Shown here: positions 33,927 to 34,205 of the stretch, piece after piece
How the letters are laid out: every line of letters begins with the position of its first letter
Position numbering within the stretch: the stretch's first letter is position 1
Virus genome (UHGV): UHGV-0373725
Length of the DNA: 35,336 nucleotides
Strand: one strand, 5' to 3'
Source: a virus
The notes under the pieces: model-generated
Databases searched by the model: none
What the model saw: the letters and a program-made list of their open reading frames with translations, nothing else
What the model was told of the DNA's origin: nothing
Made by a program: the position numbers and the translations under genes

Positions 33927-33974
33927 GCCTTACCCTCGCATCATTCCACATAGTGATCCCCATGGGGGTAAGGC
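33927..33974 (+). promoter_or_regulatory. RNA stem-loop that sequesters the Shine-Dalgarno of the first holin start codon (sdi-like)
   Basis: 9-bp arms GCCTTACCC / GGGTAAGGC; right arm contains the TAAGG Shine-Dalgarno and abuts ATG 33975. Confidence 0.45.
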
Positions 33975-34205
33975 ATGCGAATGAAGAATTTACCGGATGT
34001 GGCGGCTGGCACGTCGTACATCACATCCACTGTCAGCGGGAGCTACTGGCTGCTGCAACTTCTCGATAAGGTAAGCCCCAGCCAGTGGGCGGCTATTGGC
34101 GTACTAGCCAGTATTGTTTTTGGGCTGCTTACCTACCTCACTAATTTGTATTTCAAAATCAAAGACGACCGGCGGAAGGCACAGGACTATGAGCAACAAA
34201 GCTAA
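33975..34205 (+). CDS. Pinholin, phage 21 S21-like, with Met-Arg-Met dual-start motif
   Basis: Close resemblance to S21 ([11 protein letters not shown]...[17 protein letters not shown]); two in-frame starts at 33975 and 33981. Confidence 0.85.

Follow-up and report, generated by a model that had tools for sequence, protein, structure and literature searches.

A conserved leader hairpin predicted to bury the ribosome-binding site ahead of the Met-Arg-Met start of a phage-21 S-family pinholin gene

The virus genome UHGV-0373725, analyzed here as one stretch of 35,336 nucleotides (hereafter the window), carries on its + strand a holin gene that begins Met-Arg-Met and is preceded by a leader in which an RNA hairpin is predicted to bury the Shine-Dalgarno (SD) sequence. 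An earlier reading made from the letters of the DNA (hereafter the sequence-only reading) had described the gene as a dual-start pinholin with a 9-bp stem immediately upstream, by which the SD of the first ATG would be sequestered in a manner reminiscent of the lambda sdi structure. The leader and the beginning of the gene comprise the following features.

33904..33918, + strand: 15-nt motif GTCAGGATTCCGACC, which marks the start of the conserved holin leader and has the potential to form a 5-bp hairpin (GUCAG-GAUU-CCGAC)
33927..33938, + strand: 5' arm of the long stem, GCCTTACCCTCG, anti-SD-like and conserved in non-coding sequence; variation mostly C to U, with G·U pairing kept
33940..33957, + strand: inner hairpin of 6 bp, ATCATT (33940-33945) with AGTGAT (33952-33957), loop CCACAT
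33958..33961, + strand: conserved CCCC run, unpaired in the minimum-energy fold and an alternative partner for the G-run
33963..33974, + strand: 3' arm of the long stem, TGGGGGTAAGGC, carrying both candidate ribosome-binding sites
33975..33983, + strand: dual-start motif ATG CGA ATG (Met1-Arg2-Met3), from the translation of the open reading frame (ORF)
33975..34205, + strand: holin gene encoding 76 amino acids (aa) if begun at Met1 and 74 aa if begun at Met3; class II (pinholin type), of the phage-21 S family (PF04971)
33995..34028, + strand: second stem-loop, in holin codons 7-18 (GGATGTG...CACATCC plus inner pairs)

The holin ORF (33975..34205, +) matched the Pfam family PF04971 (Bacteriophage P21 holin S) at E = 1.8e-30 with 105.2 bits against a cut-off of 26. 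The match spanned residues 8-69 of the protein and profile positions 2-63/64, and residues 3-73 showed 68-70% identity with annotated S21-type holins of lambdoid and Stx phages. Members of the phage-21 S family have two membrane helices, of which the first is weakly hydrophobic and able to exit the membrane; read by eye, the window holin contains a 22-residue stretch rich in Gly, Ala, Ser and Thr and a separate 23-residue stretch that is hydrophobic. Pinholins form small heptameric pinholes that depolarize the membrane, and their partner is an endolysin of the signal-anchor-release (SAR) type rather than a soluble one. The earlier assignment of the gene as a holin of pinholin type was thus borne out by the family match, and the Met-Arg-Met start that it had described was found as ATG CGA ATG at 33975-33983.

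A repeat finder returned two 9-nt arms, GCCTTACCC (33927-33935) and GGGTAAGGC (33966-33974), which are 100% complementary, lie 30 nt apart and of which the 3' arm ends exactly at ATG1 (33975). In the RNA fold the stem lengthens to 12 bp, 33927-33938 pairing with 33963-33974 and including two G·U pairs, so that the stem of the sequence-only reading proved to be the perfect part of a longer one. The full leader folded at -23.7 kcal/mol (z = -3.0; 1 of 200 shuffles as stable), and the identical structure was recovered in a 161-nt context. When the 5' arm was blocked, the most stable fold left was at -13.6 kcal/mol as against -23.7 kcal/mol for the full structure. The local CCCC/GGGGG hairpin alone reached -2.6 kcal/mol, being weak because the C-run and the G-run are just 2 nt apart and allow at most 3 bp. 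The second stem-loop (33995-34028) was predicted at -15.5 kcal/mol compared with -8.7 ± 2.5 kcal/mol for synonymous recodings, of which 9 of 2000 matched it, and the relatives retain hairpins within the early holin codons, with shifted registers. Rfam 15 over 33500-34400 gave no family, only two sub-threshold chance hits of 13 bits against thresholds of 48-55, and no sigma-70 promoter was predicted within the holin leader. The reading of the stem as an intrinsic terminator was dropped, as no U-tract follows the 3' arm and the terminator scan raised no flag there.

In 35 kb of sequence, an inverted repeat of 9 bp is not in itself unusual. Perfect 9-bp inverted repeats with loops of 3-40 nt gave 14 k-mer hits (8 distinct) in the window compared with 6.0 ± 3.0 in Markov simulations, and the presence of about six such repeats per shuffled window would be the argument for taking this one as a chance feature devoid of function. 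That explanation is, however, effectively refuted: the 3' arm stops exactly at the start codon, the arrangement is kept in 59 relatives with unrelated flanks, the arms covary in the Yersinia phage YeP5 and in a Shimwellia prophage, and shuffle tests reject it, the duplex of the 5' region with the 3' arm lying at -22.3 kcal/mol compared with -11.8 ± 2.3 kcal/mol for shuffled 5' regions (1 of 2000 equal to it). The significance of the hairpin hence derives from where the 3' arm ends, from a pairing that beats the shuffles and from the conservation of the arrangement in relatives.

Near-identity nucleotide searches of phage and E. coli collections returned nothing, or one 82% match only; relatives were gathered by protein-based and DNA-pattern scans of viral contigs, from which 59 distinct homologous leaders were aligned (alignment A1). 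Conservation of the leader begins abruptly at the 15-nt motif (33904-33918), and further upstream the relatives are unrelated in sequence. In the outer stem of the proposed structure, 87.9% of the cells across the 59 relatives were standard pairs. Nine of its 12 pairs vary one-sidedly with pairing kept, by C to U opposite G or by the change of the SD from UAAGG to UGAGG opposite U; two-sided changes within the main family are confined to the closing pair, and their scarcity is attributable to the constraint on the 3' arm as a ribosome-binding site as well. The inner hairpin showed two-sided changes at three of its six pairs, with the variants UUCACU/AGUGAA, GGGAC/GUCCC, GGAAC/GUUCC and CCAC/GUGG among the homologues, and the CCCC run was nearly invariant. 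The SD region was predicted to be buried in all 59 relatives (mean unpaired probability 0.07), and the holin SD was the third least accessible of 32 window genes. The claim that the hairpin sequesters an SD therefore stands, and it gains from the covariation in the divergent YeP5 leader described below.

The relatives also include variants of the arrangement. In a subgroup of leaders (L016, L018, L019, L113 and L153) the SD is UGAGG and codon 2 is AGG; here the 5' arm CCUCAUGCC is predicted to pair with GGCAUGAGG over AUG1 and codon 2, and a local CCCC/GGGG hairpin forms within this stem of shifted register. On the folding model, this alternative register would favor AUG3. Because the register differs in the subgroup, the conserved trait, as far as the modeled folds indicate, is the occlusion of the initiation site and no single rigid helix.

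Divergent leaders provided a further comparison. YeP5 carries the exact motif GTCAGGATTCCGACC at its position 1944, upstream of a holin-like gene (101 aa, Met-Lys-Met start) whose product, compared by eye only, shows little likeness to the S21 type. Its leader keeps the CCCC-GUCU-GGGGG core, and its spacer from the G-run to AUG is UGCUU compared with UAAGGC in the window, its upstream arm UAAGCACCUUUAG compared with GCCUUACCCUCG. The YeP5 arms UAAGCACCUUUAG and CUGGGGGUGCUUA are unlike the window in sequence, yet they pair right up to the AUG in a 13-bp stem, with a duplex energy of -18.4 kcal/mol compared with -10.8 ± 2.5 kcal/mol for shuffles (17 of 2000 match). Relative to the window, four outer pairs are altered on both sides. 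In the Shimwellia prophage the outermost pair changes from G-C to A-U. A covariance model built on the proposed structure (R1) retrieved YeP5-type leaders at E of about 2e-4 and lambda at E = 7.4.

The start itself was compared over 60 distinct leader-bearing sequences, selected on the motif, the C-run, the G-run and ATG1 only. Codon 2 was CGA in 34, AGG in 19, AAA in 3, AGA in 2 and CGC in 1; 59 of the 60 thus have Arg or Lys here, and the variants differ at up to all three codon positions. Codon 3 was likewise ATG in 59, the exception being L127, a degenerate locus with a 32-aa ORF. This pattern indicates that each of the two start codons, and the basic codon that separates them, is under purifying selection. 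That codon 2 is held to basic residues argues for translation from ATG1, and the invariance of ATG at codon 3 on holins without detectable mutual similarity argues for a second start there; both starts are probably used in vivo, and the dual-start arrangement of the sequence-only reading is supported by these counts. Decayed copies were also seen: L127:2015-2182 retains the motif and the hairpin ahead of its 32-aa ORF without a second ATG, and in the L164 holin codon 12 is an in-frame stop.

The Met-Arg/Lys-Met start is kept on S21-type, 109-aa, YeP5-type and 90-aa holins and on lambda S. In a scan of 2.9 million viral contigs for GGGGGTRAGRCATGNNNATG, the matches fell almost only at holin starts, namely those of the lambda S type (about 100), the S21 type of the window, the 109-aa type and the 90-aa type. 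The 109-aa holin-like genes behind the same leader (L182:2445-2774, L146:6026-6355, L113:7674-8003 and L084:8948-9277) encode proteins beginning MRMNPQNNWLSW with two hydrophobic stretches and no Pfam family, and the N-terminus of the endolysin downstream of them closely resembles that of the window endolysin. L294:2016-2321 encodes the 101-aa YeP5 protein (MKMDTSNSLTYWW...) behind the same leader and has no family match in common with the S21 type. Besides the S21 type, at least two holin types with no detectable similarity to it are preceded by this leader.

Two segments of the 3' arm could serve as SD. TAAGG (33969-33973) lies 1 nt from ATG1 and 7 nt from ATG3, and GGGGG (33964-33968) lies 6 nt before ATG1 and 12 nt from ATG3. 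TAAGG had been put forward as the sequestered SD of the first ATG. It does lie in the 3' arm; its 1-nt spacing is too close for ATG1, and its distance fits the second ATG. By spacing, GGGGG is the likelier SD of ATG1 and TAAGG would suit ATG3. Many genes of the phage (starts at, e.g., 14095, 11150, 6845, 15095 and 12561) carry GGGG(G) 6-8 nt upstream and not a canonical GGAGG. The same distances could be cited for a single functional start codon, the other ATG being a leader triplet or an internal methionine, since UAAGG stands 1 nt before ATG1 and GGGGG 12 nt before ATG3, and YeP5-type leaders have one SD only. Such an arrangement is very improbable given that codon 2 stays basic through five different codons, that codon 3 is almost invariably ATG and that the start arrangement is kept on holins sharing no family match. 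The modeled cost of opening was 12.4 kcal/mol for the UAAGG-to-AUG3 site and 19.2 kcal/mol for the GGGGG-to-AUG1 site. As the AUG3 site is the cheaper to open, the hairpin would favor the Met3 (holin) product.

The lambda sdi structure is a local CCCC/GGGG hairpin. The lambda S leader (NC_001416) reads AAATCCCCTTATTGGGGGTAAGACATGAAGATG and that of the window GATCCCCATGGGGGTAAGGCATGCGAATG. Taken as ATCCCCTTATTGGGGGTAAGACATGAAGATG, the lambda leader gave a local alignment score of 27 with the window compared with 13.1 ± 2.0 for shuffles, none of 2000 reaching it. The 3' halves are nearly identical, lambda having ATCCCC-TTATT-GGGGGTAAGAC-ATG-AAG-ATG and the window ATCCCC-AT-GGGGGTAAGGC-ATG-CGA-ATG, with the shared pattern ATCCCC..GGGGGTAAGRCATGnnnATG. 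In these terms the CCCC run of the window is the counterpart of the C-run in the CCCC/GGGG pair of the lambda leader ATCCCCTTATTGGGGG; farther upstream, lambda has TCAGTAATCGACCTTA at the place of TCAGGATTCCGACCTTA in the window. Common to both are a basic residue between the two Met codons (Met1-Lys2-Met3 in lambda, giving the S107 antiholin and the S105 holin) and an upstream structure holding the ribosome-binding site. There are also differences. The proteins are unrelated, lambda S being a class I holin of 107 aa with three membrane helices and the window holin a class II protein of 76 aa, and the window holin lies after the tail-fibre genes of a podophage whereas lambda S follows pR'-tR'. 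The structure that dominates in the window is a long-range stem of 12 bp, at -23.7 kcal/mol, which has an upstream arm of its own, and not a local sdi-type hairpin; with the C-run and G-run only 2 nt apart, a lambda-type CCCC-loop-GGGG hairpin was not found in the window. The suggested likeness to sdi is thus stronger than had been claimed at the level of sequence, since the 3' half almost reproduces the initiation region of lambda S, and does not extend to the local hairpin. As for lambda itself, the likeness covers the whole leader (L187, NC_001416 45099-45194, versus window 33895-33983), its minimum-energy fold also contains a 12-bp long-range stem (CUUAUUCCUAAU with AUUGGGGGUAAG), and a second lambdoid leader variant loses the outer part of this lambda-type stem. 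A second stem-loop early in the lambda S coding region (at about ten codons) reportedly also contributes, and the window likewise has one early in its holin gene (33995-34028).

The other system for comparison is the pinholin gene of phage 21, which produces the S21 71 antiholin and the S21 68 holin (Barenboim et al. 1999, Mol Microbiol 32:715, cited in PMC9636201). The S21 and window proteins belong to the same family, PF04971, with 68-70% identity, and share a dual start whose longer product has an extra basic residue, as well as a lysozyme with a putative signal anchor encoded next. S21 starts Met-Lys-Ser-Met, with three extra residues, whereas the window starts Met-Arg-Met, with two, as in lambda. 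Lambdoid S21-type leaders have their own hairpin over the SD (CCAUCCG..CGGAGGUG, L022); the S21 SD is GGAGGUG, and the leader sequence and hairpin of the window are unrelated to those of S21. The S21 stem-loop is said to regulate the ratio of the two starts. With generic SD-sequestering operators the window shares an upstream anti-SD-like segment (CCUUACCCUC) that pairs with the SD and would lower initiation. Unlike them, the window element would be tied to the choice between two start codons 6 nt apart and appears to move as a cassette with holin genes. The window joins an S21-family protein to an initiation region like that of lambda S and to a long-range stem of unusual strength.

Taken together, the structure exists, is conserved and covaries, and the holin belongs to the S21 family. 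We consider it probable that 33904-34028 is the translation-initiation region of a dual-start phage-21 S-family pinholin, with an SD-sequestering hairpin that biases the choice of start. In such a scheme the hairpin would limit translation of the holin from a late transcript that is abundant. As the stem frays from its base, UAAGG, 7 nt from AUG3, would be exposed first, and GGGGG, 6 nt from AUG1, would become exposed only upon further opening, so that initiation would be biased to Met3 (the active holin) over Met1 and the stem would set the Met1:Met3 ratio. An additional positive charge at the N-terminus makes S107 and S21 71 antiholins (PMC9636201). The Met1 product, with its extra N-terminal arginine, would by analogy to lambda S107 and phage-21 S71 be the antiholin, and the holin/antiholin ratio would tune the timing of lysis. 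The CCCC run beside the G-run and the stem-loop in codons 7-18 probably modulate the choice of start, as in lambda S.

A rather unlikely alternative, which would account for part of the same evidence, is that the hairpin is a general throttle or stabilizer, lowering total holin translation or protecting the mRNA 5' end if transcription starts at the motif, with no influence on the choice of AUG and the ratio being set by SD spacing alone. It would fit the joint sequestration of both candidate SDs and AUG1, the variation of the register by subgroup while occlusion remains constant, and the leader upstream of 29130, where the motif is again followed by a hairpin up to the start codon, which suggests a general design. 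It fits less well with the constant association of the leader with a Met-Arg/Lys-Met start, even on holins without detectable similarity, with the difference of about 7 kcal/mol between the modeled opening costs of the two start sites, and with the equivalent structure of lambda, which has been reported to set the start-site ratio (PMC3369941).

Several observations weigh against a start-selecting stem. Both starts and the RNA structure are predictions from the sequence. The core of the outer stem lacks two-sided compensatory changes within the main family. RNAalifold on the 59-sequence alignment missed the long stem and gave local CCC/GGG pairing as the consensus, and R1 places the YeP5 5' arm on another C-rich segment than the minimum-energy fold does; with this disagreement, the YeP5 covariation rests on thermodynamic folding, and R1 is not independent support for the stem. 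In the L016-like subgroup the shifted register (CCUCAUGCC with GGCAUGAGG) hides AUG1 and not the G-run. YeP5-type leaders have no UAAGG as a second SD, so two SDs for two starts are not universal. Finally, at 12-19 kcal/mol the modeled cost of opening seems more than efficient translation would allow. The long stem was retained despite the RNAalifold result on account of the per-sequence folds, the shuffle tests and the covarying YeP5 leader, and the leader may be subject to a factor outside the model, for example processing, the effect of a helicase or folding during transcription.

The high opening cost, which seems to demand an activating step, also bears on the possibility that RNase III or another endonuclease processes the transcript at the composite helix (about 18 bp), removal of the 5' arm switching on the holin late, as for lambda N. 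RNase III processing activates lambda N, and the 12-bp stem, internal loop and 6-bp stem resemble phage RNase III sites of the T7 R1.1 type; the structural module of the phage is T7-like as well. The helix nonetheless falls below two full turns, and no Rfam family or processing signal was found in it, which makes processing improbable as the role of the hairpin, and start selection at a dual-start pinholin gene remains the preferred explanation.

The holin gene is followed by the other genes of a lysis cassette.

34189..34725, + strand: endolysin with a lysozyme domain (PF00959 at 6.2e-20), overlapping the last 17 nt of the holin gene
34722..35081, + strand: Rz-like ORF of the spanin pair, with an N-terminal membrane helix, from the ORF list and translation
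34957..35196, + strand: Rz1-like lipoprotein ORF of the spanin pair, overlapping the Rz-like ORF, with an LLLCSC lipobox

The N-terminus of the endolysin (25 residues), as read from its sequence, is hydrophobic and Ala/Gly-rich, consistent with a SAR domain, and the enzyme looks like a putative SAR endolysin. The Rz/Rz1-like pair (34722..35196) had no Pfam match and was assigned from position and sequence features. The window is that of a temperate phage, with integrase, Gam, exonuclease, O-like and DnaB-like replication genes and NinB. Its structural module is T7/HTVC010P-like, comprising portal, capsid, tail tubular proteins, internal virion proteins and a T7-type N-terminal domain in the tail fibre, and there is no RNA polymerase gene in the window. 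The capsid is 85% identical to those of the Yersinia phages YeP4, YeP5 and YeP6, and related prophages occur in Enterobacter, Raoultella, Shimwellia, Trabulsiella and Pluralibacter. The phage is a temperate podophage of Enterobacteriaceae, HTVC010P/YeP-like.

A less expected by-product of the analysis was the recurrence of the 15-nt motif before late genes. The motif GTCRGGATTCCGACC has four exact copies in the window, all on the + strand of the late region and at the heads of late gene blocks, and all holin-leader homologues carry it. Besides the holin leader, the copies and a variant are located as follows.

18290-18304, + strand: motif copy directly after an intrinsic terminator (18256-18282) and before the capsid gene
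29068-29082, + strand: motif copy before a small ORF that precedes the large terminase gene
31001-31015, + strand: motif copy that lies within the end of the large terminase gene and precedes the tail fibre gene
14357-14371: variant GTCGGGAAACTGACC directly after a terminator (14328-14346)

At the copy at 31001 the nucleotides are invariant across relatives while the adjacent codons drift synonymously, and YeP5 carries GTCRGGAAACCGAAC at equivalent sites. No sigma-70 promoter was predicted at the motif copies. Searches of Pfam, NCBIfam and PHROGs for a late regulator gave only one suggestive protein, of 98 aa and with a helix-turn-helix. This candidate late regulator (14095-14391) has weak helix-turn-helix matches and ends at the terminator that directly precedes the first motif-like copy and the first late gene. 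As for the motif, it could be a late promoter, an activator site, an RNA element such as a hairpin, or a sequence at a module boundary, and the holin transcript may have its 5' end there. The leader at 29068-29132 consists of the motif, then a variable stretch of about 12 nt, then a conserved hairpin rich in GC (AGCCC...GGGGCT) with TTTTTT abutting the ATG. Its hairpin looks like an intrinsic terminator placed on the ribosome-binding site, a design similar to that of the holin leader.

The initiation region appears to move as a unit between holin genes without detectable similarity. It is tentatively proposed that the leader of about 80 nt, i.e., the motif, the SD-sequestering stem with its sdi-like core and the Met-Arg/Lys-Met start, could be a portable lysis-timing cassette exchanged among S21, 109-aa, YeP5, 90-aa and lambda S holins, and that the motif heading the late units of these podophages, which lack an RNA polymerase gene, could be an undescribed late control element.

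To our knowledge, lambda and phage 21 are the only phages in which the logic of dual starts and sdi has been dissected. The locus is in that respect a confirmation of known biology and an ordinary variation on lambda-type control. It places the same dual-start logic in another lineage, a podophage of Enterobacter, Raoultella, Shimwellia and related hosts, with a stem much stronger than that of lambda. Holin timing sets the burst size and fitness of a phage, and the natural leader variants are available for testing the effect of stem strength and SD placement on the holin:antiholin ratio.

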